Assembly: GCA_963790475.1 (NCBI GenBank)
Contig: CAWBOS010000010.1
Span: 1,152,001 to 1,216,000 of the forward strand
Reading direction: 5' to 3'
DNA: 64,000 bases
DNA from: an uncultured delta proteobacterium
Lineage (GTDB): Bacteria > Desulfobacterota > RBG-13-43-22
A model generated the notes under the pieces. The model worked only from the letters and a program-made list of their open reading frames with translations, did no database searches and had not been told where the DNA came from. This document shows, in pieces, positions 6,705 through 31,269 of this stretch (its first letter is position 1; every line of letters begins with the position of its first letter). The position numbers and the translations under genes were made by a program.

Positions 6705-6788
6705 TCTATATTCCGTGTAAGGATAACTGTCAATATATTTATTGTGTTTCATCAACGATGCTTCACTATCTTAAAACAGAAACTTGTT
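6705..6788 (-). promoter_or_regulatory. Sigma70 promoter (TTGACA-17-TATAGA) plus upstream TGTTTCAT-N18-TTAAAACA-N6-TGTT candidate operator
   Basis: -35 at 6733-6728, -10 at 6710-6705; motif boxes at 6745, 6771 and 6785; close match to 25246-25328. Confidence 0.7.
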
Positions 6789-9096: not shown

Positions 9097-9117
9097 GTTT
9101 CCTCCAAAGGCTCTTGA

Positions 9118-11184: not shown

Positions 11185-11364
11185 TACTTAAATATTTTCA
11201 TTATTGCTTAAATCAAGTCAGATGAAAATGTCTCCTGACTTGGGATATCATTCAAGGACTGCATCTTTGAAAGATTTCAAGGCTAAAAGGATCTTGGCCC
11301 TCTATCGTTTATGATAAAGGGCCAAAATCCGACCATTCAAGTTTATGGGGTTTTCCAAAAGCTA

Positions 11365-13659: not shown

Positions 13660-13755
13660 AGTAAGCCTCCTTTTTTGGTTTGATTAATTAGTTAGCCATT
13701 TAAGACGACAGTCTTAACTAAAACCAAGAAACGGATAGACCCTCTTCCGGACTTA

Positions 13756-15009
13756 TCATTTTTTAAGAATAGTTACGGATAAAGCCGCCTCGGAGCCGCC
13801 CACGCTACCACCGGCATTCTGGGCCAGGGCCGCTTTGGCGCCTTCCACCTGCCTTTTACCGACCCGACCGCCGCCAGCCAGGTGCCGATAAAGCTCCACC
13901 ACCTGGCGCACCCCTGTCGCTCCGATGGGATGGCCCTGGGACTCCAGGCCTCCGGACACGTTTATCGGCAGCTTGCCGCCTAAAGTGCTATGTCCCGCCT
14001 CGGCAAAAAGGCCGCCTTCCCCCAGTCCGCAGAAACCCAGTTCCTCGGAAGCATACAGCTCCCCAATGGCTGTGGCGTCGTGGACTTCAGCCAGGTTGAT
14101 ATCTTGCGGACCGATACCGGCTCGTTCGTAAGCCGCTTTGGCTAACCGCGCCAGGGTACTCTCTTTGCCTTCTCTGGAGGGATCCTCACCACTGGCCAGC
14201 ATACAGGCCGCTATCTCCACCCCATGGCTGACGCCGATCTTCCGAGCATACTCCTCGGAACAAATAACCAGCGCAGCAGTACCATCACCGATAGGGGAGC
14301 ACATCGGTCTGGTCAGGGGCCAGGCCACCTCCGGAGCCTGCAGCACCTCTTCCACGGTGTACAGGTTTTGGTACTGGGCCAATGGGTTCAGGGAGGAATG
14401 GTAGTGGTTCTTGGAAGAAATCGCAGCCAACTGCCGCTGGGTGGTCCCGTACTTCTTCATGTGGTTTCTAGCCATGATTGCATAGACATCCATGAAAACG
14501 GAGCGCTGCCCGGACTTCTGCTTCTCGCCTTCACCCCGGGCTATCCGCTCTTTCTTGATCTTTTCCTCTTGTTCGGAGAATAATTGCATAAGCTGAGGCA
14601 GGATCTCCACGTCCAGACAGCCTATAAAGGCGGGCAACACCTTGCTTCGGTCCTCGAAGTACATCTTTTCCATGCCCACGACCAGGGCCACCTCCATCTC
14701 CCCGAGGGCCACCATGGCCCGTGCCCCGTGAAGGGCTGTGGCCGAAGAGGCACAGGCGTTTTCGACGTTGATCACCGGGATGCCCCCGATACCCATGGCC
14801 CGCATAACCACCTGGCCGCGGATGGATTCCTGACCCATTAAAACGCCCTGGGAGGCGTTGCCGACCCAGACCCCCTCAATCCGTTCCTTGGACAGGCCGG
14901 CGTCTTCGAGGGCCTCATTGACCGCCTCGGCCACCAGGGACTTTAAATTACGGTCCATATGGCGGCCGAACTTGGTCATGCCTCCGCCGATTATCTTGAC
15001 TTTACGCAT
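13756..15009 (-). CDS. Thiolase, SCP-x/non-specific lipid-transfer type
   Basis: VENACASSATA, CSPIGDG, AEVHDA and NVSGGLESQGHPIGATG motifs. Confidence 0.9.
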   Translation of the reverse strand: MRKVKIIGGGMTKFGRHMDRNLKSLVAEAVNEALEDAGLSKERIEGVWVGNASQGVLMGQESIRGQVVMRAMGIGGIPVINVENACASSATALHGARAMVALGEMEVALVVGMEKMYFEDRSKVLPAFIGCLDVEILPQLMQLFSEQEEKIKKERIARGEGEKQKSGQRSVFMDVYAIMARNHMKKYGTTQRQLAAISSKNHYHSSLNPLAQYQNLYTVEEVLQAPEVAWPLTRPMCSPIGDGTAALVICSEEYARKIGVSHGVEIAACMLASGEDPSREGKESTLARLAKAAYERAGIGPQDINLAEVHDATAIGELYASEELGFCGLGEGGLFAEAGHSTLGGKLPINVSGGLESQGHPIGATGVRQVVELYRHLAGGGRVGKRQVEGAKAALAQNAGGSVGGSEAALSVTILKK

Positions 15010-15035
15010 GGAATTTTTCTCCTTTCTCAGAATAA

Positions 15036-16643
15036 TTAATAGAAATTTTTAAGCGGAAAGACATTTTCGGATTCCGGATTGAATGCTTCCCGCAGCAGCC
15101 GGTCGAGATTTTTCTCTGAAGCGGACTTTGGTATTTCCTGGACCACCTGAATATAGGTCGGCACGCTGTTACGGTCCAGGTTGGTCCGGCAAAGTTCGAA
15201 GATACTTCTGATGTCGGGTGTGCGCCCTTCAGTGGGGACGATAGCAGCCACCAGGTCGCTTTCACCCGGAGCACCGGAGGCAGCCGGAACCCCATAAACG
15301 CAGATGTCGGTCACGTCGGAATGCTGGGCGATCACGCCCTCAACGAACTCGGGCATAATGAAGTCCCCCTGACGCCTCAGTCCCCCGCCTTTGCGGAAGT
15401 CGAAATAGAGCCAGCCGTCAGCGTCTTTGTGGACCATGTCGCCTGAGCGCAGCCAGCCCCCGCGGGTCTTGGCCTCGGAGGCCTCTTTCTTGCCGTGGTA
15501 TTCCACTTCTGTCTCCCCCATAACCGCACGGGAAAGGAGTTCTCCGATCTCACCGGGCTGACATTCACTATCATCTTCCCGGACCACTTTCATCTCCATA
15601 ATCCCCTCCAGGGGTTTGCCGAATGAGCCGACAGGGCCGACTCCGGGCGGTTTGTGGGCAAAGCCCCCTTCCACCGCCCCATACCATTCATGTATCTTGA
15701 CCTTAAAGCGCTGTTCAAAGGCCTCCCAGATACTTCGTGGTGTCCCCGCGCTGAGGACGACCTTGATCGGATTATCTCTATCGTCGGGCCGGGCGGGCTC
15801 GGAATAAATACCCATCATCATCCCCCCCAAGAGCGAAAAAGTTGTACAACCATAGCGCCGACAGACATCCCAGATGCGGCTCTTGGTGAATTTACGGGAA
15901 ATCACGGCCGGGATGGAACGGAACAAGGCCGGATTCAGAGTCACCGCCTGAGCGTTTCCGTGAGTCAAGGAGAGCCCGGTGTACAGTTTGTCCTCCGGGG
16001 TGTACTGCCAGACGAGATCGGCCAGCAAGACGTAGCCCTGCAGGCGATCGGCCCGCATGCGAACACCCTTGGGATTACCGGTGGTGCCGGAGGTATAGAT
16101 GATCATGAAGTAGTCCCGCGTTGATTGACCATCGGGATCAAACATCATCGCTTGGGAGCCTTCCAGGACTTCTTTCAGGTCCGGATACTTAGGAGAGACC
16201 GGAATACCAAACTCAGGGTTATACAAACAGCCGATGGTTTTTACATCGGGCATCCAGGAAAGGGCTTCGTCCATGGAGTCCATAAATTCAGCAGCAAAGA
16301 TAACGCCTTTGCTACCCGAGTCTCTTATCTGATACCTTAGCTTTTCCCCTTTGGATCTAGGATCAATCGGGACGAGTACGGTCCCTAAGACCGACGCGGC
16401 ATACATGGACAGAACGACCTCCGGATGATTACGCATCACAATGGAAAAAGTGTCCCCGCGGACAAAACCCAATTTTTCCATGGCTCGGGCCAACCTGGTG
16501 CCCTTGAAGACCAGATCGGCATAGGTGAGAATCTCATCCGGGTGGGGGTGATTTTCAAAGGTCACCACGGGGAAATCGGGGTTATCTTCCGCCTTGGCCA
16601 TCATGTCAAAAGCCAGGACTCCTGGAATTTTGCTTTCAGTCAT
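15036..16643 (-). CDS. AMP-forming acyl-CoA ligase (CaiC-like)
   Basis: YTSGTTGNPKG, HGNAQ, EWYGAVEGG and GWLRSGD motifs. Confidence 0.9.
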   Translation of the reverse strand: MTESKIPGVLAFDMMAKAEDNPDFPVVTFENHPHPDEILTYADLVFKGTRLARAMEKLGFVRGDTFSIVMRNHPEVVLSMYAASVLGTVLVPIDPRSKGEKLRYQIRDSGSKGVIFAAEFMDSMDEALSWMPDVKTIGCLYNPEFGIPVSPKYPDLKEVLEGSQAMMFDPDGQSTRDYFMIIYTSGTTGNPKGVRMRADRLQGYVLLADLVWQYTPEDKLYTGLSLTHGNAQAVTLNPALFRSIPAVISRKFTKSRIWDVCRRYGCTTFSLLGGMMMGIYSEPARPDDRDNPIKVVLSAGTPRSIWEAFEQRFKVKIHEWYGAVEGGFAHKPPGVGPVGSFGKPLEGIMEMKVVREDDSECQPGEIGELLSRAVMGETEVEYHGKKEASEAKTRGGWLRSGDMVHKDADGWLYFDFRKGGGLRRQGDFIMPEFVEGVIAQHSDVTDICVYGVPAASGAPGESDLVAAIVPTEGRTPDIRSIFELCRTNLDRNSVPTYIQVVQEIPKSASEKNLDRLLREAFNPESENVFPLKNFY

Positions 16644-17003: not shown

Positions 17004-17086
17004 TTTGTATTTTGTGCCAAAATATTTGTCAATGTTTTTAAAATGTTTCATATTGATTTTATCTTACTATAAAACATTTTTTTGTT
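17004..17086 (-). promoter_or_regulatory. Sigma70-like promoter (TTGACA-17-TACAAA) plus TGTTTCAT-N17-ATAAAACA-N6-TGTT candidate operator
   Basis: -35 at 17032-17027; motif boxes at 17044, 17069 and 17083. Confidence 0.6.
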
Positions 17087-17764: not shown

Positions 17765-19996
17765 ATGAAGGAAAATGATAAAGCACTATCGGCCCTTCTG
17801 GCTGTTTTCCCGACTCCCGAGACTTTAGTTCAATTCTCCGAAAACATGGATAATAAAAAAGCCCTGGAGTCCTTTATGGACTTCGCGGTTAGAAACAATC
17901 TCATAAAAAAGAAGGACAGAAAAAGTCTGCTGAACCTTATTAGTCAGCATCGCCGGTCAACCCAAGATTTAACGCCGCCGAATAATCTTAATTTTGAAGA
18001 ATTGCTTGAAAAAAAGAAAGGGATCCTCAAATTGAATTTTTCAGGGAGAATATTGACGAACCGAGTCAATGCCCTGATTGCTGAACACCGGATAGAATTA
18101 CCCAGGGTGAGCAATTCCATGCTGAGCCGATTAAAAAAGGAGTCGACTGACACGGCCCATAAAGAGAATGTCTTAAGAAGCCTGGCCTTCTGGTTGGGTC
18201 ACGAACGAAAGGAACTGGGGCCCCTCTGGAATTTTGAAACCTTGGTTAAACTCTGCGGGGAAAGAAAACCGCAGGAAAATTTTCGGGAAGGGGTCCGAAT
18301 CGGGTTTGCCCTCTACAGCCAGGGTGATGTTATCGACCATGACATCATCAATTGGCTTCGAAAGGCCCTGAAAAATTACATCGAACAATCGGTAGGTCAC
18401 TTTCTCTATGGCCGGTGGGGCAAAGTTCGATCGCACGATATCACTACTTTATTTTTGGATTTTCCCAAGGAAGAGGAAGCTGAAGACCCGGCTTATTATC
18501 ACCAATGTCTTAGAAGCGCTGTTTCATTAGCCCATCAGATCGCCCTCCGCTGGGCCTTGTCTAAACACTGCACCAAAAACCGTTTTTTATCCATCGGGAT
18601 CGCCGCCGGCGAATATGCCAATCTGGATAATTACCTGCTCCCCACCTTAAAGGCCAAGCTGCCCGGTGATCCGGTGATTCGGGTTACCGACTATGTCCGG
18701 CAGTGCTTGCTGATCAACGATATCCGGGCCATACTCTGCGAACATCCCAATGAAATTACCCTGTTTACCGGAGAATCTCTGACCATTTGGTGGGTCGTAG
18801 CCCTCTGGAGTAACCTCTATTTTGATTTTGTTCCGGATTTACTGGAAGACCATATCTTAAAAAATACCCCGGCTTCTATTGAGGCCTTGACCCGGTTGCT
18901 CTGGTTGTCACCGGACGAGAGACCCAACTCTTCCGAAATCAATGAGCCGAATGCGGTTACAACTTTTTTTAAATTTCCTCACAATTCGCTCCTGGGGGTG
19001 GAAATTGCCAAAACCCTTTATTTTCGACGGCGTTTCCGGGAAGCGTTGGAGATTCTTCGTATCGTCCTTTCCATCGATCCGACCCATCTGGTCCCCAGGA
19101 CGCTGAGAATGGTTCTGTTCCACAATCTGGCCCTCGACGCGCCGTCTTATACGGCTGCAGAGCATTTATTTAATCAATCGGAACATGAAGCTTTTTTCGT
19201 CGAGGAAAAATGTACCAATCTATCCGAAGATTTTTATTGCGAATATGGGTTGTGTTACCAAACTAAAGCCATGTTGATGGTCCGACTCATGCGCCAAGGA
19301 GAGAAGCCCTTCCCGGACTTGCAAGATCTGGAACAATCAAGGGAGATCGTTTTTCTGGCCTTAAGTAAGGCGGAAAATCTTTTTGAAAAAGGAATGACCA
19401 TATCGCCATCCGGGATCCGATCCTCCTTCCTGTTGGGCAGTGCGAGACTGGTTAAATCGATTTTAAAGAATAACAAAGACCTCTTCATCAATCCCAAGCT
19501 ACCCATCGACAGCAAACCTGAAATAGTCAGGCAGACAGGTAGAGATCTTTATTTGCAACTAGGTCTTTTAAGGCATGAACTTCCGCCGCAACTCCAATAC
19601 GACTTCCTAATCCGATCCGTGTATGACAAATTTGAAATCCATGACAGTTCAATATCTTTACAAACCTATAGAGCCACCACTTATTTCCGTACCGCCGTAG
19701 TCCTGTGGGATTTTGTACCATTTATAAGGACTGCGGCCGTGGCCAAGAAGACTGTCCAATTGATAAATGATGCCAAAGAAATTGCCCAATCGATTGAAAA
19801 AAATGATCTCTCCATTTACTCGTTTAACCGAACCTTGATTGAAATGGTCCCGGTTAAGGAGTTTGTACGGCAGATGGAAAAATCGCTTGAAATGATCAAA
19901 GAGTATGTCGGACGAGATCTAACAATTCTGGATGACCAGGAAATTATCGAATCAAACGGGAGTCTTTCATCAATACTCATGACACTTAATTTTTGA
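17765..19996 (+). CDS. Hypothetical regulator: XRE-like HTH + degenerate class III cyclase-like domain + TPR/helical region (paralog 1)
   Basis: 743-aa ORF with AAGGAG RBS; close paralog at 25385; domain reading by eye (VSNSMLSRLKK, LSIGIAAGEY, ALEILRIVLSIDPTH). Confidence 0.65.
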   Translation: MKENDKALSALLAVFPTPETLVQFSENMDNKKALESFMDFAVRNNLIKKKDRKSLLNLISQHRRSTQDLTPPNNLNFEELLEKKKGILKLNFSGRILTNRVNALIAEHRIELPRVSNSMLSRLKKESTDTAHKENVLRSLAFWLGHERKELGPLWNFETLVKLCGERKPQENFREGVRIGFALYSQGDVIDHDIINWLRKALKNYIEQSVGHFLYGRWGKVRSHDITTLFLDFPKEEEAEDPAYYHQCLRSAVSLAHQIALRWALSKHCTKNRFLSIGIAAGEYANLDNYLLPTLKAKLPGDPVIRVTDYVRQCLLINDIRAILCEHPNEITLFTGESLTIWWVVALWSNLYFDFVPDLLEDHILKNTPASIEALTRLLWLSPDERPNSSEINEPNAVTTFFKFPHNSLLGVEIAKTLYFRRRFREALEILRIVLSIDPTHLVPRTLRMVLFHNLALDAPSYTAAEHLFNQSEHEAFFVEEKCTNLSEDFYCEYGLCYQTKAMLMVRLMRQGEKPFPDLQDLEQSREIVFLALSKAENLFEKGMTISPSGIRSSFLLGSARLVKSILKNNKDLFINPKLPIDSKPEIVRQTGRDLYLQLGLLRHELPPQLQYDFLIRSVYDKFEIHDSSISLQTYRATTYFRTAVVLWDFVPFIRTAAVAKKTVQLINDAKEIAQSIEKNDLSIYSFNRTLIEMVPVKEFVRQMEKSLEMIKEYVGRDLTILDDQEIIESNGSLSSILMTLNF

Positions 19997-20023
19997 CCTT
20001 GCAGGTTAAAGCCAGATTTATTT

Positions 20024-20065
20024 TGTTTCATTAAAATTGTGTTTTGCTATAAAAGATCATCTGTT
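20024..20065 (+). promoter_or_regulatory. Fourth, degenerate copy of the candidate operator/promoter motif
   Basis: TGTTTCAT-N17-ATAAAAGA-N5-TGTT directly upstream of a decayed paralog fragment. Confidence 0.5.
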
Positions 20066-20145
20066 TTCTCTCCTAAGAAAATGTCCTAAGGCTGACTTTC
20101 CAATTTCAACAAGGGTGTAGCGTAACCATATCGAAGATTATAAAA

Positions 20146-20266
20146 GTCCCTTATGGAATATTGAGACCTGGCGAAAGCTTGGTAAGGAAAGGAAGCCATC
20201 GGAAAATTACCGTGAAGGGGTTCGATCGGGTTTTTCCTTTGCGGCCGGAGGATTGTCATATAACCA
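20146..20266 (+). pseudogene. Remnant of a third copy of the 742-aa regulator family
   Basis: Translates as PLWNIETWRKLGKERKPSENYREGVR then a frameshift to IGFFLCGR; paralog 2 reads PLWNYETLRKLCGERKPSENYREGVRIGFALYGR. Confidence 0.85.
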
Positions 20267-20283
20267 GGCTTTAAATCAACGGC

Positions 20284-21225
20284 TCAGGGCAAGGCCTTTA
20301 TAATTTTTTCCGCATTCCCTCCCAAAAGGGCCTTGATTTCTTCTTGGGTGAAGGTAAGCCCATCGGGAGCGTTTTCCGGTAAGTCCTGGAAAATTTCCAG
20401 CCAGTGCGTGGTCGAGATGGTACCTTCCAGACTGGGATTATCGGTCCCCCAGAGGAATTTTTCGGCCGTGGCTTCATCGAAGGCCTCGCGCAAGATCCGG
20501 CAGAATTTGGCCAAATTTCTTCGGGCCTGGCCCTGCCAGCCGGAGACATCGGCATAAAAGCTCGTCTCTTTGGTCGCTATGAGGTTGACCAGCTCCGGCC
20601 ACCAGCAAAAACCCAGATGGGCTCCGACGACGGTGAGGTGAGGGAAATCGCTGATTACTGCGTCGAGGTTTGCCGGTTGGCCGTATTTACTCTTTAGGGG
20701 CCTGGAGATGGGACCCAAATGGCTGATCAGGGGAATACCCAGTTCCTGGGCTTTGGCCAAAACCCGGTAGGACTCCTCGCCATCCGGATAAAATCCCGAG
20801 GTGGGATGATACTTGAGGCCCCGGCAGCCGTAGTCATTCACCGCCCGGTCCAGGATATCAACGGCCCCTGGCCGCCGCGGATCGATTCCGGCGAAGGCCA
20901 CGATCCGGTCCGGAAAGGCCTTGGCTATCGAACCGTAGAAACGGTTGATCTCATCAATTGACATAGCCGCTTCACCGATTCCGTACCCCCAATCCAGGGC
21001 CAGAATAAAGGTCTTATCCACGCCGGCCTCATCCATCCTGGCGATGAGTTTCGAGCCGTCCGGGTCCATCCATCCGTCCATGATCATAGTCTTGGCCTGA
21101 AGGGAGGTGATTTCGCCGAGCTTATTCCTCCGGCAGTAGGCCACCACCAGGCCGGCCAATTCATCCCAGTAACGGTCCGGCAGGATATCCCAGGTCCAAA
21201 CATGACAATGAGCATCGATGATCAT
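20284..21225 (-). CDS. Amidohydrolase family protein (Amidohydro_2)
   Basis: IIDAHCH, GLKYHP, GAHLG and LWGTDNP motifs. Confidence 0.9.
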   Translation of the reverse strand: MIIDAHCHVWTWDILPDRYWDELAGLVVAYCRRNKLGEITSLQAKTMIMDGWMDPDGSKLIARMDEAGVDKTFILALDWGYGIGEAAMSIDEINRFYGSIAKAFPDRIVAFAGIDPRRPGAVDILDRAVNDYGCRGLKYHPTSGFYPDGEESYRVLAKAQELGIPLISHLGPISRPLKSKYGQPANLDAVISDFPHLTVVGAHLGFCWWPELVNLIATKETSFYADVSGWQGQARRNLAKFCRILREAFDEATAEKFLWGTDNPSLEGTISTTHWLEIFQDLPENAPDGLTFTQEEIKALLGGNAEKIIKALP

Positions 21226-21341
21226 GTCTTATTTCTTCGCTTTCCAAAACACTCCCAGGGAATAGGCCAATCCTGAGGGCAATCAGTCGTTGATCTTATT
21301 TTTATCCTTCAAGGGCTGGCTTGGGTAAAGAAGCGTTACCT

Positions 21342-22319
21342 CTATTTCCGAAGTATTCGGACGCCTGTACCGGCCAGCAGTATGGCCAGAAGAAGGATGA
21401 CACCCTGAATCATGGTCGTATAATAGCCCGGCACCATCATGATGATCAAGCCGTTTATGGCCACAACGACAATGATAACACCCACCAGAGTTCCCCAAAT
21501 ATGGAATTGGCCGATCCGTATGGTGGCCGCGCCGATAAAGCAGGCCCCGAAAGCATCCATCAGATAAGAAGTGCCCTGAGTGGCATTGGCCCCCAATACG
21601 GCCGAGGCGAGGACGATACCGCCGATGGCCGAGCAAAAACCGGACAGGACGAACCCCAGGAGACGGTTGAAGCGGACATCGATACCGGACATGCGGGAGG
21701 CTTCCGGATTGCCGCCGATGGCCTCCATGCGCCTTCCGGTGGTGGTAAAGCTGTGGAAGAGGGCCACCAGGGCCAGCAGGATGATCATCACAAAAAAGCG
21801 GACTGGAATGCCTAAAAAATCACCCCGGCCGATAATGCCGAAATCTTCGGGTAAATTCCAGATGGAAAGCCCCTTGGTAATGGCTAAGGACGTCCCCGTC
21901 AGGACGCTCATGGTAGCCAGGGTGCAGACAAAGGCCGGAAGCTCCAAATAAGCCACCAAAAGACCGTTAACCAAGCCGGCCGCAATTCCGACCAGCAGGC
22001 CGAAAACAATGGACAGGAAAATGCTGTAACCGGCCACCAACGCTAATGCGGTTACGATCCCGGCCATGGCCGCTATGGCCCCTATTGAAAGATCAAAGTC
22101 ACCCATTTTCAAAACGCAGGTCATGCCGGCGGAGAAAATTGAAAGGAGGGCCAACTGCCCCAGCACATTAACCAGGTTTTCCGGGGAGCGGAAGGGGGGC
22201 AGCAGAACGCTGAAGCACAAAACCATGAGCGCCAGGAAAATAAAGGTCCCGTATTTCCCGACGTAAGTAATCCATTTTATCCGCGCACTCGGTGCGCCGG
22301 TTGTTTTCGTCATGTTCAT
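21342..22319 (-). CDS. Ribose/sugar-type (CUT2) ABC permease
   Basis: DFDLSIGA, PAFVCTLA and GRRMEAIGGNPEASRMSGI motifs. Confidence 0.92.
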   Translation of the reverse strand: MNMTKTTGAPSARIKWITYVGKYGTFIFLALMVLCFSVLLPPFRSPENLVNVLGQLALLSIFSAGMTCVLKMGDFDLSIGAIAAMAGIVTALALVAGYSIFLSIVFGLLVGIAAGLVNGLLVAYLELPAFVCTLATMSVLTGTSLAITKGLSIWNLPEDFGIIGRGDFLGIPVRFFVMIILLALVALFHSFTTTGRRMEAIGGNPEASRMSGIDVRFNRLLGFVLSGFCSAIGGIVLASAVLGANATQGTSYLMDAFGACFIGAATIRIGQFHIWGTLVGVIIVVVAINGLIIMMVPGYYTTMIQGVILLLAILLAGTGVRILRK

Positions 22320-22381
22320 ACCTTTCTTCTATGTTTCCTTTTTTCTCAAAAAATTGGCCGAAGCTCCGCCCATAAGCCGGT

Positions 22382-23908
22382 TTAATTCCCCAGCAATAGA
22401 TCCATAACCTTTTGTAAGTCGGCCCGGCTGTTGTCCAGTTCGGCTTTGATTTCACCCTTTTCCAGGACCAACACTCTATGGGCCAAACCGACCACCTCGG
22501 TCAGGTCCGAGGAAATCAAAATAATCCCGGTTCCCCTGCGAGCCAGCTCGGTGATCAGTTCGTATAGGGCGAACTTGGCCCCTACGTCGATCCCCCGGGT
22601 CGGTTCATCGCAGATCAAGACCTTGGCCTCGCTGCAAAGCCATTTCGCTAAGATGACCTTCTGCTGGTTGCCGCCGCTTAAAAGGGATACGCTTTGGTCC
22701 AGACCGGAGGCTTTGATATTGGTCGACTCATAAAAAGGCCTGGCCGCCAGGCCTTCCTTGGCCCGGCTTATGACCGGGACCTTGGCCCAGCGCCGGAGCT
22801 TTTGCAGACTGGCCAGGGTAATGTTCTGCTTGACGTCCATGGGCAGGACCAGACCGTCCCGACGGCGTTCTTCCGGAACCAGGGCCACTTTTTGGCTAAT
22901 GGCCTCTTTAGGCGATTTAATTTCAACCGGCTTTCCTTCAATGAAGATCTCACCGGAGTCCTTCTGAAGTGCTCCGAAGATCAGACGGGCCAGAACCGAA
23001 CGGCCCGAGCCGACCAGTCCGGCCAGGCCTAAAATTTCTCCGGCATGGAGTTGAAAACTGACCTTCCGGACCGCCCACCCCCGACTCAGGTCCTTGACTT
23101 CCAAAAGGGTCTTTTCTTGAGGAGGATGCCGTTGGGGGAAGATGTCCCGCAGCTCCCGGCCCAACATCATCTGGTAGAGCTTGCCCGAATCCATCCCAGC
23201 CACATCGGCCGTATCTACTCTTCGAGCGTCGCGGATGACCGTAACCCGGTCGGCGATGCGGAACACCTCTTCCATCCGATGGGAGACGTAAACAATAGCC
23301 TTGCCGGTCGACTTGAGATCGGCGATGGAGTGAAAAAGCTCGTTGACCTCCTCATGGGTGAGCGATGAGGTAGGCTCATCCATGAAGATGATACGGGATT
23401 TTAAGGCCAAGGCCCGGTTAATGATGGTTTTCCATTGCTGGATGATGGTCAAGGCCGAGGCCGGCAAGCGCAGGTCGGCCCCGATAGGCAAAACATCCGG
23501 GATGGTTTGGACCATTTCCACCATCTTGGCCAGGTTGACCAACTTGAAGCGGTTAAGGGGATAACGGCCGAGGAAGATATTTTCCGCCACGGAGAGATGG
23601 GGCACGATATTAAGTTCCTGGTGGATAAAGGCCAGCCCCAGGTCCTGGCTGTCACTCGGGCTGTTGATCTCACAGGGCCGGCCATCGATAAGGATTTCCC
23701 CTTGATCTTCCTTATATAACCCGGCTATGACCTTGATTAAGGTTGATTTTCCGGCCCCGTTTTCCCCCACCAGGGCATGGACTTCACCAGGTCGAACATC
23801 GAAATCCACCTGATCCAGTGCCCGCTGTCCGGGAAAATCCTTGACAATGCCCCTGGCTTCCAGAATCGTTTCCTGACTCATTTTATTAATGGACATAATA
23901 GACTTCAC
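22382..23908 (-). CDS. Sugar-type ABC ATP-binding protein with two NBDs (RbsA-like)
   Basis: GENGAGKST, DEPT, LSGGNQQK and DEPTRGIDVGAK; exact start uncertain. Confidence 0.93.
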   Translation of the reverse strand: MKSIMSINKMSQETILEARGIVKDFPGQRALDQVDFDVRPGEVHALVGENGAGKSTLIKVIAGLYKEDQGEILIDGRPCEINSPSDSQDLGLAFIHQELNIVPHLSVAENIFLGRYPLNRFKLVNLAKMVEMVQTIPDVLPIGADLRLPASALTIIQQWKTIINRALALKSRIIFMDEPTSSLTHEEVNELFHSIADLKSTGKAIVYVSHRMEEVFRIADRVTVIRDARRVDTADVAGMDSGKLYQMMLGRELRDIFPQRHPPQEKTLLEVKDLSRGWAVRKVSFQLHAGEILGLAGLVGSGRSVLARLIFGALQKDSGEIFIEGKPVEIKSPKEAISQKVALVPEERRRDGLVLPMDVKQNITLASLQKLRRWAKVPVISRAKEGLAARPFYESTNIKASGLDQSVSLLSGGNQQKVILAKWLCSEAKVLICDEPTRGIDVGAKFALYELITELARRGTGIILISSDLTEVVGLAHRVLVLEKGEIKAELDNSRADLQKVMDLLLGN

Positions 23909-23920
23909 CTTTGAGAAACG

Positions 23921-23954
23921 TATCCTTCTCCCCGGAAAGCCGGGGAGAAGGATA
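23921..23954. terminator. 15-bp perfect hairpin after the binding-protein gene (mRNA stabiliser or partial terminator)
   Basis: tatccttctccccgg-aaag-ccggggagaaggata. Confidence 0.7.
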
Positions 23955-23961
23955 GGATGGT

Positions 23962-25002
23962 TTACTTTACTTTAAAATTTGGTTTGCCCTTATAACCGCA
24001 AGGGTTGTAATAATAGCCCGGCGGCGGCACATTGGCCTTGGTCACGAGGTCTGGCATGGAAAACCATACCTCCTCGTCCGTAAACGGCTTTCCGGCAAAG
24101 ATCTTGTCGAGATTCAGGAAAAGACGTTCGGTCCATCTGGGGGCATCCCAGTTGGCACCCGAGGTAGCATAAAGGTTAGGTTGCTCTCGGATCTCTTTGT
24201 AGGTGTTGGGGGCATCATCAGTGGTGGTGACGACGACATCACTTCGCCTCATATCCTTGGCCGCCCTGGCAGCCGGGATGCCGTAACCTTCCCAAGTAGT
24301 CCAAATTCCTTTTATCTCCTTCTTAGTGTCGGCCAGGAGGGCATTTTTAATGGCTTCATAACAGGCTTGTGAGGGATCTCCTCCCGTGCCGGTGTATTGT
24401 AGTTCCTGGGAAATTTTCAGTTTGTACGATTCAAAGACGACTTTGGCTACGTTGAATCGGAACATACCGGTGCTTACCCTGGGATCATAATAAACAAGGA
24501 CTTTATCCCCCGGACGAAGCTGGGAGACTAAAGCCAGGGAGCTCAAAGCCGCGAAGCCCGCTTCCGGGGCTATGCCGTGTGAAATTACCCCCGGGACCAT
24601 GGCTCCGCAGGCGATCCCCTGAACCGGGATCCCCTTTTTGTAGGCTTTCAGAATTTGCTGATCTTCATATTTGAAGTCCGTCCAGTTAATGATAATGCCG
24701 TCATAGCCGGCGGTAATCATGTTGTCCATGGTGGCCTGCGCTTTGGCAACATCTCCCTGAATATCAAAAATCTGCAGGTCCCAGCCCCGCTTTTTGGCAT
24801 ATTGCCGGTAATAATTGTTGGCCAGGGCCGAGACCTCGATTCCACCAATCAAATCCAGGACGCCGATTTTTATCTTTTTCTTCCCCTTGGGTTGAATCTG
24901 AAAAACCCCGGCCTGGGCGGATCCGAGGGTTGTGGCCAGGAATATCACGGCCACCAAAAGCATGAGCACGACTTGCATCCTTTTCATCATGTTTTTTCCC
25001 AT
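23962..25002 (-). CDS. Sugar-type ABC substrate-binding protein (Peripla_BP_4-like)
   Basis: Signal peptide; D.QGDVAKAQATMDNMITAGYDGIII and KKGIPV pattern; operon context. Confidence 0.82.
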   Translation of the reverse strand: MGKNMMKRMQVVLMLLVAVIFLATTLGSAQAGVFQIQPKGKKKIKIGVLDLIGGIEVSALANNYYRQYAKKRGWDLQIFDIQGDVAKAQATMDNMITAGYDGIIINWTDFKYEDQQILKAYKKGIPVQGIACGAMVPGVISHGIAPEAGFAALSSLALVSQLRPGDKVLVYYDPRVSTGMFRFNVAKVVFESYKLKISQELQYTGTGGDPSQACYEAIKNALLADTKKEIKGIWTTWEGYGIPAARAAKDMRRSDVVVTTTDDAPNTYKEIREQPNLYATSGANWDAPRWTERLFLNLDKIFAGKPFTDEEVWFSMPDLVTKANVPPPGYYYNPCGYKGKPNFKVK

Positions 25003-25245
25003 GTTACTCTCTCCTTTTATCGATGTTGGTTTAAAAAAAAATGGTTTGCAGACGTCGACCCGGGTTAGGTGGTTCCCTGTGGCCGATGAGAACTATTAAA
25101 CAATCGCCTCCTTTCCTTTGGTAACAAACATTCCACTTCAGCCCCTCCTTAAGGGTAACAATCATTAACTTGGGGGGTTTTATGAAAAAAGGGCCGGATC
25201 AAATTGCCATAGGGTCTTTTCTTGACAAACGAAGGTTTTTATGAC

Positions 25246-25328
25246 TCTATATTCTTTGTTAAAACAACTGTCAACTTTTTAAATTGTTTTATTAAAAATA
25301 TCATTTTATCATGAAACATTCTATTGTT
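25246..25328 (-). promoter_or_regulatory. Sigma70 promoter (TTGACA-17-TATAGA) plus TGTTTTAT-N18-ATGAAACA-N6-TGTT candidate operator
   Basis: -35 at 25274-25269, -10 at 25251-25246; motif boxes at 25285, 25311 and 25325. Confidence 0.7.
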
Positions 25329-25384
25329 TTTTCATTCCCCAATCCCCACTTTGATAAAATATATTGTAAAAAAGGAATAACTGC

Positions 25385-27613
25385 ATGAAAAAAGAAAATA
25401 ATTCCCTGTCCGCCCTTTTGGCGGTTTTCCCGACCATAGAAACCTTTACCGAATTCTATGAAAATATGGATAATAAAAAATCCGTGGAATCTTTTGTTGC
25501 CTTTGCCTTCCAAAACGATCTTATTAAAAAAGAGGATGGTAAAAGTCTTCAGGCCCTTATCCGCCAGCATTCCCGACCAAAGACGGAGTTAATTCCGCCC
25601 AACCATATTAATTTTGAGGACTTGCTGGAAAAAAAGGAAGAGTTCCTCAAAATGAATCTATCGGGACGGGCCCTGACAGACCGGGTCAATGCCCTTATTA
25701 AAGAACACCGGATCGAATTGCCCAAGGTGAGTAATTCCATGCTGACCCGGCTGAAAAAAGAACCAGCCGATACACTTTATAAACGGAATGTATTGAGAAG
25801 TCTGGCCTTCTGGTTGGGTCATGAGAGGGCGGACCTGGGTCCCTTATGGAATTATGAAACCTTGCGAAAACTCTGCGGAGAAAGGAAACCCTCGGAGAAC
25901 TATCGGGAGGGGGTCAGGATCGGTTTTGCCTTGTATGGACGGGGAGACGTTATCGACCATGATATCGTCGGCTGGCTTAAAAAAGCCTTGAGAAATTATA
26001 TCGAACAATCCCTCGGGCATCTTCTTTACGGCCGGTGGGGTAAGGTTCGTTCTCATGATATCACCACGCTGTACGTGGATTTTCCCAAAGAAGAGGAGGC
26101 TGAAGCCCCGGCTTCTTATCGGCAGTGCCTCAGGAGTGCTGTTTCCCTGGCCCATCAGATCGCCATCCGTTGGGCCTTGTCCAAATACTGCACCAAAAAC
26201 CGCTTTTTATCTATCGGAATCGCAGCCGGCGAATATGACTCCCTGGACAACTATTTACTTCCAGTTCTGAACGCCAAGCTGCCCGGCGATCCGGTGATAC
26301 GGGTAACCGACTATGTGCGTCAATGCCTGCTGATCAACGATATCCGGGCCATACTCTGCGAACGTCCCAACGAAACTGCCTTGTTTAACGGGGAGGCTCT
26401 GACCATCTGGTGGGTCACAGCCTTATGGAGTACCCTCTATTTCGATTTTGTCCCCGACTTGCTGGAAGACCGGATACTACAAACCGATCCTGAATCTGTT
26501 AAGGCCTTAAATCATCTTTTGTGGCCCTTGGAAGAAACAAGCCCCCCTTCATCTGAAAAGGATGAACCCAATGCCGTTACCACCTTCTTTAAAGTCCCTC
26601 ATAATTCTCTCCTGGGTGTGGAAATCGCCAAAACCCTCTATTACCGCCGCCGTTTCTGGGAGGCCCTGGAAATACTTCGGATCGTTCTTTCCATCGATCC
26701 GACCCATTTGGTGGCCAGGACTTTGCAGATGGTCCTGTTTCGCAATTTGGGCCTAGTCGCCCCGAACTTTTCCATTACTCAAGGTATGTTCAAACAGGCC
26801 GAACAAGAGGCTTTATATATTTTGAAAAACTGTGTCAGTCCGTCAGAAGATTTTTACTGCGAATATGCGGGCATTTATCTGGCCAAATCCATGTCCACTA
26901 TCAGGTATATGCGAAAAAGTAAGGGGGTTTTCAACGGACCGGGAGATCTCTTTTCCTTAAAACAGATGATTTTTTCAGCCTTCGACCAGGCCGAAAATCT
27001 TTTCGAAAAGGGGATGACCGGATCTCCTTCGGGAATTCGATCATCGTACCTGCTGGACAGTGTGAGGGTGTTAAAAGAGATCATGAAAAATAACGAAGAC
27101 CTATTTGTGAATCCCAAAGAACCCATCGACCATATCCCTGAAATTGTAAGACAACCCTCCATCAACCTCCAGTGGGAAATCGGCTTTTCGAGGGATGATA
27201 TTCCCCCTCAACAGAGATATGATTCTATCTTCCAGTCGACCCTTCAGAAATTTAAGATTTACGATGATTCGATTTCCTTGCAAGCCTATCGGCCCACGAC
27301 CTATTTTTGCCATATCGTTTCCTTATGGGATTTCGCCCCCATCAGGACCGTAGCCATTGCCAAAAGGGCCTTTCAATTACTAAGAGAGGCCATTGAAATA
27401 GCCAGGTCCGTAGAAAAAGATGATCTTTGTATCTATTCTTATACCCGGACCTATGGAGAAATGCTCCCGGCCCAAGAATTTATTCAGCATGTGGAAAAAT
27501 CGTTAAAAATGATTGAAGATTATCTGGGAGGAGACCTGTCTAACCGTGATGACCGGGAAATCATAGGCCAGAAGGGAAATCTTTCATCTATCCTGATGAC
27601 CCTTAATTTCTAA
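25385..27613 (+). CDS. Hypothetical regulator: XRE-like HTH + degenerate cyclase-like domain + TPR/helical region (paralog 2)
   Basis: 742 aa, collinear with 17765-19996, same C-terminus LSSILMTLNF. Confidence 0.65.
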   Translation: MKKENNSLSALLAVFPTIETFTEFYENMDNKKSVESFVAFAFQNDLIKKEDGKSLQALIRQHSRPKTELIPPNHINFEDLLEKKEEFLKMNLSGRALTDRVNALIKEHRIELPKVSNSMLTRLKKEPADTLYKRNVLRSLAFWLGHERADLGPLWNYETLRKLCGERKPSENYREGVRIGFALYGRGDVIDHDIVGWLKKALRNYIEQSLGHLLYGRWGKVRSHDITTLYVDFPKEEEAEAPASYRQCLRSAVSLAHQIAIRWALSKYCTKNRFLSIGIAAGEYDSLDNYLLPVLNAKLPGDPVIRVTDYVRQCLLINDIRAILCERPNETALFNGEALTIWWVTALWSTLYFDFVPDLLEDRILQTDPESVKALNHLLWPLEETSPPSSEKDEPNAVTTFFKVPHNSLLGVEIAKTLYYRRRFWEALEILRIVLSIDPTHLVARTLQMVLFRNLGLVAPNFSITQGMFKQAEQEALYILKNCVSPSEDFYCEYAGIYLAKSMSTIRYMRKSKGVFNGPGDLFSLKQMIFSAFDQAENLFEKGMTGSPSGIRSSYLLDSVRVLKEIMKNNEDLFVNPKEPIDHIPEIVRQPSINLQWEIGFSRDDIPPQQRYDSIFQSTLQKFKIYDDSISLQAYRPTTYFCHIVSLWDFAPIRTVAIAKRAFQLLREAIEIARSVEKDDLCIYSYTRTYGEMLPAQEFIQHVEKSLKMIEDYLGGDLSNRDDREIIGQKGNLSSILMTLNF

Positions 27614-27655
27614 AATGGACAACAACCGGAAATGGGCTTTGTCAATTACTCTTTT

Positions 27656-31261: not shown

Positions 31262-31269
31262 TTTTTTCC

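Follow-up and report, generated by a model that had tools for sequence, protein, structure and literature searches.

Two paralogous genes and their divergent operons

The window, which is the whole 64,000-nucleotide stretch of DNA analysed, contains two plus-strand genes of one protein family, each beside a minus-strand operon identified by Pfam and, for copy 1, also NCBIfam models:

17765..19996, plus strand: copy 1 (P0001, 743 aa; ORF and translation)
25385..27613, plus strand: copy 2 (P0002, 742 aa; ORF and translation)
7313..16643, minus strand: operon divergent from copy 1, with the next six genes
15036-16643, minus strand: acyl-CoA ligase (AMP-ligase)
13756-15009, minus strand: thiolase-like
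11365-13659, minus strand: ACAD-Fer4-nitroreductase fusion
9118-11184, minus strand: HdrD/CCG-type Fe-S protein
8305-9096, minus strand: ETF beta
7313-8305, minus strand: ETF alpha
20284..25002, minus strand: operon divergent from copy 2 (Peripla_BP_4 binding protein, ABC ATPase, permease, amidohydrolase_2)
20024..20255, plus strand: third-copy remnant (partial array, then a 40-aa fragment)

An earlier sequence-only reading proposed that these paralogs are local regulators. The two ORFs lie where it placed them and align end to end with 506/743 identities (68%) and one gap, all peptide strings that it quoted are found in P0001, and both copies face away from a catabolic or an uptake operon as it described. 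The C-terminal third is indeed more diverged, since identity is 53.6% over residues 451-743 versus 77.6% over residues 1-450; the most conserved region is the cyclase-like part (169-352, 84.8%). The reported absence of LysR, TetR, IclR and sigma-54 activators holds for the 43 Pfam-scanned window ORFs, nearly all of at least 150 aa and several without any Pfam match. The remnant's 40-aa fragment matches residues 149-189 (E 4e-7, 55% identity), and its partial array (TGTTTCA 20024-20030, TGTTTTG 20040-20046, TAAAAGA 20050-20056, TGTTTT 20062-20067) was read by eye and detected by no model.

P0001 has 334 homologs at E<=1e-3, and the family comprises 202 clusters at 50% identity with a constant length of ~740 aa, mostly from Desulfobacterota with two Halomonadaceae. 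The family appears to be new, as had been suspected: neither copy is matched by Pfam or NCBIfam models, source annotations say only 'hypothetical' or 'TPR repeat protein', and a literature search found no description of it. The proposed local-regulator position recurs in homologs, with a divergent upstream gene at 65 of 72 loci. An ALDH-Fe-ADH fusion or ALDH is part of the divergent operon in 37/72 loci, and Fe-ADH and/or AOR in 11/72; the pairing with ALDH-ADH is retained even in Halomonas and Vreelandella (L074, L078). The gene order of the copy 2 operon also adjoins the closest relatives, L002 and L004. The adjoining alcohol- and aldehyde-oxidising genes are probably the targets of the family.

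Domain architecture

Three parts were distinguished in copy 1:

17990..18259, plus strand: residues 76-165, helical, XRE-like atypical HTH candidate
18263..18814, plus strand: residues 167-350, degenerate class III cyclase-homology domain
18953..19909, plus strand: residues 397-715, TPR-like helical repeats

Residues 167-350 have a class III cyclase-homology fold according to Foldseek and a second, independent aligner. This bears out the fold claimed for residues ~175-315 but moves its end to about residue 350. Loss of the first metal-binding Asp had also been claimed, and neither position expected for the metal Asp pair is conserved among 65 members: in a register inferred from secondary structure, the first is hydrophobic in 65/65, and at the second a candidate Asp remains in 19/65, the residue otherwise being variable. 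Pfam gave no PF00211-type match in any of the 65, and hhalign of the family against 24 genuine class III cyclase domains gave E 0.14. The TPR assignment was correct in kind but much too short at residues ~410-455; residues 403-570 superpose on classic 3-TPR modules and helical repeats continue to ~715.

The XRE-HTH assigned to residues ~76-165 was the weakest part of the earlier claim: the data are compatible with it, but no family model matches. The AF2 model has helices at 94-107, 117-125 and 131-147 (pLDDT >90), the second being the predicted recognition helix (SMLSRLKKE in copy 1), and the putative HTH helices are joined by a 9-residue loop (108-116) where a canonical turn has 3-4 residues. 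When aligned with 31 XRE domains by hhalign, the segment matched in the expected register with P=0.013 (controls 0.36 and 0.55), a match that requires a 5-residue insertion at the 108-116 loop. Language-model neighbours of residues 70-168 fall in HTH_3, HTH_31 and HTH_26 clusters (0.85-0.89), which is a lead only. A Pfam search of 65 diverse members at E<=1 returned one chance-level HTH_23 match among HTH models, and the N-terminal profile had no match among PDB sequences (best E 0.31); the fold-search lists were filled by cyclase-domain matches and so bear on that domain rather than on residues 1-165. The most conserved N-terminal stretch, LP.V[ST]NSML[TS]RLKKE...K.NVLRSLAFWLG, has many invariant Arg and Lys residues.

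A heptamer array with a predicted embedded promoter

Upstream of the family genes, T[A/G]AAACA heptamers form an array that is conserved and spans 73 bp:

25260..25332, plus strand: copy 2 array (nhmmer E 1.6e-9 among loci, 2.3e-10 whole genome)
25260-25266: unit A, TAAAACA
25285-25291: unit B, TGTTTTA
25302-25308: unit C, CATTTTA
25312-25318: unit D, TGAAACA
25325-25331: unit E, TGTTTTT
25269-25274: box TGTCAA
25246..25274, minus strand: predicted sigma-70-type promoter, leftward to the ABC-transporter operon (read from sequence)
17019..17086, plus strand: degenerate array within the 1.1-kb spacer that separates the AMP-ligase operon from copy 1 (weak; nhmmer on the spacer alone)
6723..6788, plus strand: orphan array, partly degenerate (genome scan E 0.69, 12.6 bits; sequence)

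Of the 77 eligible genome loci from which an nhmmer model was built, 75 had a match to it in the 400 nt before the gene, as did 52/58 loci of an independent metagenome set, with three more farther upstream. On the coding strand the array precedes the start codon by 75-150 nt, and it accompanies the family gene whichever operon stands opposite. In 464 oriented units pooled from 116 unique arrays, the base counts were T 411 at position 1, A 335 and G 128 at position 2, A 460 at position 3, A 407 and G 55 at position 4, A 460 at position 5, C 400 and T 62 at position 6, and A 360 and G 103 at position 7. Units C and D form GTTTTA-N3-TAAAAC.

A scan of the 6.3-Mb genome with the array model found only the copy 2 site, the orphan site and one noise-level match. 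The orphan array is 139 nt upstream of an operon (2945-6584, minus strand) encoding a 139-aa protein, Fe-ADH and aldehyde:ferredoxin oxidoreductase, and in related genomes (L003, L005, L043, L029, L039) a family member adjoins the Fe-ADH/aldehyde:ferredoxin oxidoreductase operon. Other arrays without an adjacent family gene occur at L008, L041 and L072 (acyl-CoA ligase), L047 (Fe-ADH operon) and L067 (ALDH-ADH fusion). All the orphans point the same way and precede target genes by 74-196 nt. The array at 17019..17086 scored E 0.0018 and, once a large correction for composition was applied, 8.8 bits; the genome-wide scan at E<=10 did not detect it. Its distance is ~375 nt to the start of the ligase gene and ~675 nt to the ATG of copy 1. 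That the only array before copy 1 is degenerate and so distant from the start codon counts against the regulator reading.

The array is predicted to hold a sigma-70-type promoter directed at the divergent operon. At copy 2, the minus strand reads TTGACA (25274-25269) as the -35 hexamer and TATAGA (25251-25246) as the -10 hexamer, with a 17-nt spacer that contains unit A. A minus-strand TTGAC box is present in 96 of 115 unique arrays (TTGACA in 67, TTGACT in 19), and 79 of these 96 have a -10-like hexamer 16-18 nt away, often TATAAA or TATACA at 17 nt, compared with 3-25 of 96 for ten other spacing windows.

Co-variation of the array with the protein

Among 127 array-gene pairs, 15 have at least two units changed to TAAGACA/TGTCTTA, and all 15 of the proteins carry V-D-K-S-M-L-S (Lys117), a residue found in none of the other 112 (Asn in 109, Ser in 3). 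The association holds in the first set (6/6), the independent set (9/9) and among unique pairs (12/12). Heptamer base 4 changes together with residues 116-117, at the start of the predicted recognition helix. Asparagine usually contacts adenine and lysine guanine, and replacement of Asn by Lys alongside A by G would fit these preferences. This co-variation indirectly supports DNA binding by the HTH-like segment.

The 15 Lys117 loci form three separate groups on whole-protein trees. With IQ-TREE the trait needs at least two changes across well-supported branches, a number as low being obtained in 0/500 label shuffles; with FastTree the L193/L194 pair meets the other Lys117 loci only at the root. 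Since a mere ~500 bp separate the operator from the gene's 5′ end, the three lineages could have arisen by recombination of a single module and not independently. Both types can coexist: L024 (Asn type) and L045 (Lys type) are on the same contig, each adjoining its own Fe-ADH/AOR operon. L013 and L046 are both in one MAG.

Proposed function and alternatives

The family is best read, with reasonable though not full assurance, as a new one-component DNA-binding regulator family for alcohol and aldehyde catabolism: cytoplasmic transcription regulators that probably consist of a head that binds DNA, a cyclase-like core without activity and a tail rich in repeats, and that have the array as their operator. 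The N-terminal domain (~76-165) would be an atypical lambda/Cro-like HTH whose recognition helix, beginning at residue 117, reads 7-bp T[A/G]AAACA half-sites. These would be the five units A-E at fixed spacing over 73 bp, with A and B flanking the -35 hexamer of the divergent promoter, C and D forming a palindrome whose half-sites are centred one helical turn from each other, and E lying 6 bp past D. Several protomers may fill the array and, without effector, occlude the near-consensus promoter; the protein would therefore act as a repressor. With the array placed between the promoter region and the regulator gene itself, the protein probably also controls its own expression. The central domain, its catalytic metal site lost, may serve for dimerisation and/or as a nucleotide- or ligand-binding switch, and which effector or partner is recognised would depend on the diverged TPR tail. 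The earlier idea of shared DNA specificity with different effector specificity would fit the near-identical helices and diverged C-terminal thirds of the two copies. The usual targets would oxidise alcohols or aldehydes by an ALDH-Fe-ADH fusion, or by Fe-ADH with aldehyde:ferredoxin oxidoreductase; in this window they would be the acyl-CoA ligase/beta-oxidation operon and the ABC uptake operon.

The sign of regulation is read only from promoter geometry, and repression is somewhat favoured. It is possible that the same DNA binding instead activates transcription in response to an effector, class I/II- or STAND-like (AfsR, MalT): units B-E are upstream of the -35 hexamer, where activators bind, the order of DNA-binding domain, central switch and TPR parallels AfsR-type activators, and activator control is common for catabolic operons. 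However, promoters that depend on an activator are usually not as near to consensus as the one embedded here, and unit A falls within the -35/-10 spacer.

That the protein does not bind DNA at all, but acts through its TPR tail as a signalling scaffold or a non-canonical cyclase-fold enzyme beside an array that is another factor's operator or simply promoter region, is unlikely. The failure of HTH models to match would suit such a protein, as would the greater conservation of the cyclase-like domain than of the N-terminus, and TPR domains usually mediate protein-protein contacts. Cyclase-like domains that lack catalysis and have other roles are known: PDB 6yii is by its title a class III adenylyl cyclase-like ATP-binding protein, and an A. 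baumannii protein of cell division, described in a 2026 preprint, has a nucleotidyl cyclase-like domain. Left unexplained would be the co-variation of base 4 with residues 116-117 and the way the array follows the gene regardless of the opposite operon, and the hydrophobic or variable residues at the expected catalytic-metal positions also count against this reading. More improbable still is an array acting as RNA, transcribed as 5′ leader of the family gene, with hairpins (A:B, C:D or D:E) forming an attenuator or protein site for translational or antitermination autoregulation. Its position on the coding strand upstream of the start codon would allow this; the A:B and C:D pairs have complementary sequences, both stems carry the compensating change where position 4 goes from A to G, and TPR-like proteins can bind RNA, for example IFIT5, which is among the full-length Foldseek matches. 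Against it, one consensus is common to all units without stem-by-stem drift, the 7-bp stems are A/U-rich, A:B position 2 is an A-C mismatch in 18/93 arrays, C:D position 1 pairs in only 63/116, and no Rfam family matches the array region. Nor would RNA account for orphan arrays that precede other operons with no family gene downstream, or for a minus-strand promoter at conserved spacing inside the array.

Comparison with known regulators

Among known systems, the RNPP-type regulators (Rgg, PlcR, PrgX, NprR, ComR; phage AimR) are cytoplasmic proteins with an N-terminal XRE-type HTH followed by a TPR sensor. The present family resembles them in joining HTH-like and TPR parts in one cytoplasmic polypeptide and in its proposed local regulation of neighbouring genes, but has a 185-residue cyclase-homology domain in between and occurs in Desulfobacterota and Halomonadaceae rather than in Firmicutes or phages. 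No gene for a peptide was noticed beside the family genes, and no RNPP protein was among the sequence and fold matches listed. AfsR/SARP-NB-ARC-TPR STAND regulators (also MalT, GutR) have a DNA-binding domain, a nucleotide-binding-type switch and a C-terminal TPR sensor, and this shared domain order makes them a plausible analogue of the working mode. They differ in having a P-loop NB-ARC/NACHT ATPase in place of the palm-like cyclase-homology domain, a SARP/OmpR winged helix, and ~1000 residues rather than 740.

From class III cyclases (PF00211; Rv1264 1y10, CyaB 3r5g, Rv1625c 4p2f) the family is set apart by the lack of a sequence-level match, and the non-catalytic 6yii (P. aeruginosa) and 7sua (A. 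baumannii ACX60_00475) have, by their entry titles, no HTH-like and TPR fusion. The mycobacterial CHD-AAA-TPR-LuxR proteins (Rv0386, Rv1358, Rv2488c; PMC3466318) combine CHD, TPRs and HTH in one chain and are the only described proteins found to do so; there the order is reversed, with an N-terminal CHD and a C-terminal LuxR HTH, an AAA ATPase is included, and Rv0386 is reported as an active cyclase. None of the CHD-AAA-TPR-LuxR Pfam domains was detected in the present family. Compared with lambda, 434 and Cro (XRE) proteins, the family has the 9-residue loop (AF2) for a tight turn, no HTH_3 HMM match and ten times the size, but it shares the recognition-helix pattern S-x-[LI]-S/T-R-[LI]-K/E followed by a hydrophobic helix, palindromic half-sites (C/D) one helical turn apart, and multiple adjacent operators that overlap a promoter.

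Two paralogous genes and their family

The sequence-only reading described two collinear paralogs, and both open reading frames are present, with every peptide string that it quoted found in the translations:

17765-19996 (+), copy 1 (P0001), 743 aa
25385-27613 (+), copy 2 (P0002), 742 aa

The full-length alignment of P0001 with P0002 has 506 identities in 743 positions and one gap, and identity is distributed unevenly: 63% over residues 1-65, 75% over 66-168, 85% over 169-352, 61% over 401-570 and 57% over 571-743. The C-terminal third had been called the more diverged part, and it is (53.6% over residues 451-743 versus 77.6% over 1-450). Neither protein matches any model of Pfam (E<=10) or NCBIfam, and a PDB sequence search with the full-length family profile returned nothing useful (best E 0.15, for a TPR protein).

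Relatives number 334 at E<=1e-3 in a word-indexed search; the best 120 are 52-93% identical, nearly all 741-743 aa long, and annotated no more closely than as "hypothetical protein" or "tetratricopeptide repeat protein". With HMMER, 1.84 billion cluster representatives were searched exhaustively, and 202 clusters match at E<=1e-3, 114 of them at E<=1e-30; the full-length family clusters are collinear, about 730-780 aa long and as little as ~24% identical, and the best 150 of the 202 include no ordinary cyclase, XRE or other multidomain proteins. Carriers with names are Smithella, Smithellaceae, Syntrophales, Syntrophobacteraceae, Desulfatitalea, Desulfatibacillum alkenivorans DSM 16219, Desulfosudis oleivorans and Desulfosalsimonas and, outside the phylum, Halomonas eurihalina DSM 5720 and Vreelandella nigrificans. 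The genome from which the window was taken has two full copies only, plus one 40-residue fragment. One-component regulators are the main bacterial way of sensing the environment, and this family of probable regulators has gone without a Pfam or NCBIfam model under such uninformative names.

Divergent operons and probable targets

Both copies face away from minus-strand operons, the position of a local regulator that the sequence-only reading had pointed out, and the pattern holds across the homologs, with the upstream gene divergent at 65 of 72 loci. It had also stated that the window has no LysR, TetR, IclR or sigma-54 activator, and among 43 window ORFs scanned with Pfam there is no classical regulator of these types. 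The operon opposite copy 1 encodes an acyl-CoA ligase, a thiolase-like protein, a fusion of acyl-CoA dehydrogenase (ACAD), ferredoxin and nitroreductase, an HdrD/CCG-type iron-sulfur protein and ETF beta and alpha; the operon opposite copy 2 encodes a Peripla_BP_4 binding protein, an ABC ATPase, a permease and an amidohydrolase_2 protein. Across the family, the divergent operons most often encode aldehyde dehydrogenase (ALDH), iron alcohol dehydrogenase (Fe-ADH) or aldehyde:ferredoxin oxidoreductase (AOR).

Contents of the divergent operon at the 72 loci with an upstream gene, from a simple ORF caller and blastp clusters
886-aa ALDH-Fe-ADH fusion, or separate ALDH: 37/72
Fe-ADH and/or AOR: 11/72
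F-type conjugation-like genes: 5/72
Sugar-type ABC system, as opposite copy 2: 3/72
Acyl-CoA ligase, as opposite copy 1: 3/72
Branched-chain-type binding protein: 2/72
Something else: 11/72

The 886-aa neighbour was considered as AdhE and rejected (309 bits with the AdhE model, for which the cut-off is 951); its N-terminal half is nearest to non-acylating NAD(P) ALDHs, with 527 bits for the betaine-aldehyde dehydrogenase model, under that model's cut-off. The recurrent target theme is oxidation of alcohol to aldehyde to acid, followed by activation of the acid and beta-oxidation. On the tree, copy 1 groups with homolog locus L041, which has the acyl-CoA ligase/thiolase context, the partners of copy 2 are L002 and L004, which share its ABC/amidohydrolase context, and a third sister group (L003, L005, L043) lies opposite an Fe-ADH/AOR operon.

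For Desulfobacterota that live syntrophically or degrade hydrocarbons (Smithella, Syntrophales, Desulfatibacillum, Desulfosudis, Desulfatitalea), the family offers a candidate regulator of alcohol and aldehyde oxidation genes, together with its predicted operator and promoter. To our knowledge, their gene regulation has hardly been studied, and their genetics are hard; two Halomonadaceae isolates that possess the regulator with an ALDH-ADH neighbour are easily grown aerobes in which it could be tested. Searches of full-text literature, mostly outside subscription journals, yielded no account of the family, nor of any regulator assigned to these operons in these taxa.

A heptamer array with an embedded promoter

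In a comparison of the upstream regions (400 nt) of 69 family genes, TAAAACA was found in 55, at preferred spacings from TGTTTT. The recurring element was captured in an nhmmer model as an ungapped array of 73 nt with five units.

Units of the heptamer array
Unit A: T[A/G]AAA[C/T]A, followed after 2-3 nt by the box TGTCAA
Unit B: TGTTT[T/C]A, 9-10 nt after the box TGTCAA
Unit C: [C/T][G/A]TTTTA, after a 10-nt A-rich spacer that follows unit B
Unit D: T[A/G]AAACA, 3 nt after unit C
Unit E: TGTTT[T/C], 6 nt after unit D

Pooled in one orientation, the units read T-R-A-A-A-C-A with a nearly invariant AAAC core. The array lies no more than 400 nt upstream of the family gene at 75 of the 77 genome loci with enough upstream sequence, a count that is not independent of the model built from those loci. 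In an independent metagenome set, which is biased toward closer relatives because it was recruited with a less diverse alignment, the array lies within the same distance at 52 of 58 loci and further upstream at three more. The array model gives no match at L206 and L207, which are the most distant loci (26-29% identity) and where repeats of TGAAACA/TGTTTCA and TGAAATA-N6-TATTTCA were seen by eye just upstream of the gene.

Only three sites, one of them at noise level, match the model in the 6.3-Mb genome from which the window comes. The arrays of the window and an apparent remnant of the locus are:

6723-6788 (+), orphan array, partly degenerate (genome scan E 0.69)
17019-17086 (+), degenerate array before copy 1 (E 0.0018 with the 1.1-kb spacer searched alone)
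20024-20255 (+), apparent wreck of a third copy, between copy 1 and the amidohydrolase gene
25260-25330 (+), array before copy 2 (genome scan E 2e-10)

The orphan array is 139 nt upstream of an operon for a 139-aa protein, Fe-ADH and AOR, and in five related genomes this operon is directly opposite a family member. The region 20024-20255 resembles a decayed third family copy: a partial array (units B-E, by eye) is followed, about 70 nt past it, by the 40-aa fragment, which matches residues 149-189 with 55% identity (E 4e-7), suggesting past duplication and deletion in the locus. The 1.1-kb spacer before copy 1 (16644-17764) contains no ORF longer than 72 aa and no Rfam match, and the distance from array to start codon is ~670 nt for copy 1 and 75-150 nt to the ATG in its relatives. 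Over 16500-27700, the only Rfam match at E<=1 is a chance-level one inside copy 2.

On the minus strand the box TGTCAA reads TTGACA, and TTGAC is present in 96 of 115 unique arrays. A -10-like hexamer (at least four of six matches to TATAAT, with A at position 2) follows at 16-18 nt in 79 of these 96, compared with 3-25 of 96 at ten other spacing windows; by a stricter definition (five of six) the counts are 29 of 96 versus 0-9 at five other windows. The minus-strand box and the -10 hexamer at a set spacing therefore constitute a near-consensus sigma-70-type promoter directed toward the divergent operon, with unit A in its spacer, unit B just upstream of the -35 and units C-E further upstream. 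For copy 2, the leftward transcript is predicted to start about 7 nt past the minus-strand -10, near 25236-25240; no public RNA run is listed for 24000-26500. Arrays without an adjacent family gene keep this orientation and precede their target genes by 74-196 nt, which is consistent with a promoter inside the array. Their targets are acyl-CoA ligase genes in L008, L041 (where this second array is directly before the gene) and L072, an Fe-ADH operon in L047 and an ALDH-ADH fusion gene in L067; an extra array in L053 is ~100 nt before an uncharacterised ORF of 185 aa.

A promoter of the regulator itself, read on the plus strand as TTGACA-N-TATATT, was considered and rejected in favour of the minus-strand reading. 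Plus-strand TTGAC[A/T] (25222-25227 and its equivalents, read by eye in about ten loci and weakly visible in the consensus) recurs 20-21 nt to the left of a conserved TATA, which is too long a spacing for a promoter with that TATA, and a promoter scan of 24950-25450 did not report it. This TTGAC[A/T] and the array's TGTCAA box are inverted repeats of each other.

Co-variation of the array with residue 117

At six genome loci every unit of the array is TAAGACA/TGTCTTA, a change of A to G at position 4 of the heptamer, and in the six adjacent proteins LPKVDKSMLSRLKK replaces the otherwise near-invariant LPKV[S/T]NSMLTRLKK. The metagenome set contributed nine more G-variant arrays, with Asp116-Lys117 in 9/9. 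Among the 127 array-gene pairs in all, Lys117 is present in 15/15 with at least two G-variant units and in 0/112 others (Asn in 109, Ser in three); with 108 unique pairs, Lys117 is still present in 12/12 G-variant pairs. One locus with a single changed unit (L069) keeps Asn117. The association of Lys117 with TAAGACA is complete, and the array is linked to the protein and co-evolves with it, as the cognate site of a sequence-specific transcription factor would.

On an IQ-TREE phylogeny of 70 full-length proteins the variant requires at least two changes across well-supported branches, and 0/500 label shuffles scored as low as the observed distribution. On a FastTree phylogeny of 109 proteins the variant forms three separate groups, one of which (L193/L194, ~47% identical to P0001) joins the other two only at the root. 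Recombination of the operator and the 5′ gene segment as a single module is possible, and so three independent events are not claimed. Lys- and Asn-type paralogs can coexist, as expected if specificity has diverged to insulate paralogous regulons: Lys-type L045 and Asn-type L024 share a contig, where each adjoins an Fe-ADH/AOR operon of its own, and a single metagenome-assembled genome has L013 and L046 as paralogs of the two types.

Inverted heptamers might alternatively be the stems of a structured RNA. Heptamer position 2 varies without compensation, such that unit A opposite unit B has an A-C mismatch in 18 of 93 arrays, which argues for degenerate half-sites bound by a protein and against RNA stems. 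Residue 117 is at the N-terminal end of the helix that the sequence-only reading had called the recognition helix, and a change from asparagine to lysine together with one from adenine to guanine follows common contact preferences. Asn117 goes with TAAAACA and Lys117 with TAAGACA, a rule of recognition that can be tested directly and that might supply orthogonal regulator-operator pairs.

Domain architecture

The proteins have three parts. A full-length AlphaFold2 model (50-sequence alignment, pLDDT 81.7, pTM 0.72) shows helices up to residue 165, followed by an alpha/beta domain and, over residues 397-715, by helical repeats. The C-terminal part has the stacked helix-turn-helix repeats of 34 residues expected of TPR proteins, in agreement with the TPR-like part originally proposed. 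Foldseek of this model against PDB returned low-TM TPR proteins only, masking the other domains, and therefore residues 1-355 were folded alone, from a 76-row alignment reaching 21% identity (pLDDT 90.6). This model has 64 PDB matches at E<=1e-3, and those listed are all catalytic domains of class III adenylyl or guanylyl cyclases (probability 1.00, target-normalised TM ~0.5-0.67), which bears out the cyclase fold recognized from the sequence. The relationship does not show at the level of sequence: PF00211 matches none of 65 diverse family members at E<=1, none of its 17 matches in the genome of the window (E<=1e-10) is at either gene, an hhalign comparison of the cyclase-like region with 24 genuine cyclase domains, taken from this genome and related ones, is not significant (E 0.14), although it aligns the correct elements ("IGIAAG" opposite "IGINTG"), and residues 170-350 have no usable match in the ESM Atlas.

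Residues ~167-350 are predicted to be a catalytically dead cyclase-homology domain (CHD), as had been suggested, because the metal-binding aspartate and transition-state asparagine positions are lost, in a register taken from secondary structure and the partial hhalign match without residue-level superposition. The position of the first metal-binding aspartate (residue 183) is Leu, Ile, Phe or Val in 65/65 members, the candidate second (D225) is Asp in 19/65, and residue 305, where the asparagine is expected, is Ile in 61/65. True class III cyclases are abundant in the organism beside the two degenerate ones, its 17 genuine PF00211 matches being outside the window and many of them in frames of ~1120-1240 aa. 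No other part of the protein is conserved as well as the cyclase-like domain, which must therefore do something specific. Class III cyclase domains are obligate dimers, and the candidate roles are dimerisation and/or binding of a nucleotide-like ligand; a homodimer prediction with two chains of residues 1-355 scored 0.00 against a mark of 0.42, which is evidence neither way.

The XRE helix-turn-helix that the sequence-only reading placed at residues ~76-165 is, taken alone, its weak point. No XRE-clan Pfam model matches P0001 or P0002 (E<=10) or any of the 65 diverse members (E<=1), one of which matches HTH_23 at E 0.061; an N-terminal family profile found nothing useful among PDB sequences (best E 0.31); and in the AlphaFold2 model helices 94-107 and 117-125 are joined by a loop of nine residues, unlike the canonical tight turn. 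The fold searches of the 1-355 model against PDB and viral structures were filled by the cyclase domain and bear on that domain rather than on residues 1-165; the viral search had cyclase and GGDEF first, and its "immunity repressor" (E 0.26, probability 0.18) and "HTH domain protein" (E 0.38, probability 0.07) amount to nothing. Two observations speak in its favour. In an hhalign comparison with 31 XRE domains from related genomes, ALIAEHRIELPRVSNSMLSRLKKE pairs with helix 2-turn-helix 3 (P 0.013, 19 columns with a five-residue insertion; P 0.36 and 0.55 for two control regions), and by ESM features the named clusters nearest to residues 70-168 belong to HTH_3, HTH_31 and HTH_26 (0.85-0.89), a lead only, since the tool's mark is 0.9. 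The best-conserved N-terminal stretch is LP.V[ST]NSML[TS]RLKKE..DT..K.NVLRSLAFWLG, with many invariant arginines and lysines.

Comparison with known regulators and a proposed mechanism

By analogy, the family may work like an RNPP regulator or an AfsR-type STAND regulator, and it belongs to neither class because their defining domains are absent or replaced. In RNPP regulators an XRE HTH is directly fused to a TPR domain that binds a cognate secreted peptide, whereas here a CHD of 185 residues intervenes; no RNPP chain is among the best 50 structural matches, which says little by itself. AfsR-type STAND regulators have the same order of DNA-binding domain, switch domain and TPRs, but the central domain of STAND proteins (AfsR, MalT) is a P-loop NB-ARC/NACHT ATPase instead of a cyclase fold. 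Neither P0001, P0002 nor the 65 diverse members match AAA, NB-ARC, GerE/LuxR or PF00211 models of Pfam. The only chains found that combine CHD, TPRs and HTH are mycobacterial proteins of the Rv0386 class, which are described as having an active N-terminal CHD, an AAA ATPase and a C-terminal LuxR HTH, with cyclase activity reported for Rv0386 (PMC3466318); compared with that description, the order in the family is reversed and the extra ATPase is missing. The architecture and the use of the cyclase fold are undescribed as far as could be found, while one-component regulators as a kind are already known; the class III cyclase fold has been reused as a non-catalytic module in a probable transcription factor.

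In the proposed mechanism, the N-terminal domain would bind the heptamers, and several protomers would occupy units A and B, which flank the -35, and units C, D and E. Occupancy would repress a promoter that is strong on its own, and the repression would be relieved by an effector for which the TPR tail, the cyclase-like domain or both are the sensor. Judged by geometry only, a repressor is somewhat favoured over an activator. An unlikely elaboration of this mechanism is that the degenerate CHD is more than a dimerisation scaffold, namely a ligand-gated switch in which binding at the former active site drives assembly on the five-unit array, with the TPR tail as a second, paralog-specific input. 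The putative CHD ligand might then be ATP, GTP, a cyclic nucleotide or an acyl-adenylate-like metabolite, and the TPR tail might respond to a partner protein or to a signal derived from an alcohol or aldehyde. If true, the CHD would be a functional equivalent of the STAND NOD ATPase built from a palm-type cyclase fold and a new class of pseudo-enzyme transcription switch, and the Asn117/TAAAACA and Lys117/TAAGACA pairs would be ready-made orthogonal regulator-operator sets.

Other features of the loci and the window

The first gene of divergent operons of the Fe-ADH/AOR or conjugation-like kind always encodes a small protein of 120-190 aa that belongs to no Pfam family. Examples are:

6165-6584 (-), in the window
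L024:7188-7718
L045:7335-7736
L007:4560-4925

A relationship among these small genes (clusters c6, c17, c28 and c16) was rejected in the absence of any blastp link at E<=0.01, and resemblance to SCP2 was rejected in the absence of any Pfam match at E<=1 beyond chance. At L007, L009, L012 and L013, genes for OmpA-like, DsbC-like, TraE and TraK proteins are opposite the family gene, within the upstream 5-8 kb. These four loci, from one Smithella/Syntrophaceae group, are mostly of the Lys117/TAAGACA type (L012 is not), and their F-type conjugation-like clusters may be on a mobile element.

The 764-aa fusion protein in the operon opposite copy 1 (11365-13659, minus strand) has an unusual architecture of ACAD, a 4Fe-4S ferredoxin segment and a nitroreductase/BluB-like domain, and its gene adjoins those of the HdrD-like CCG protein and ETF. 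A 374-aa protein (28764-29888, plus strand) inverts the usual order of chemoreceptors, its single-Cache sensor (residues 236-371) being C-terminal to its MCP signalling domain (residues 64-208). In the region 30059-40091 (plus strand), nitronate-monooxygenase-like paralogs (30059-31261 and 37032-38180) flank an ETF:quinone oxidoreductase and a PAS-GGDEF-EAL protein, and the second is followed by an enoyl-CoA hydratase and a semialdehyde-dehydrogenase-like gene; nitronate-monooxygenase-like and ETF:quinone oxidoreductase genes of the same blastp clusters are also downstream of family members in L004, L005 and L043. Mobile elements occupy 51536-56676: an IS21-type pair, consisting of an IstB-like ATPase (51536-52348) and an integrase/Mu-type transposase (52311-53936), and a DDE transposase (55231-56676).
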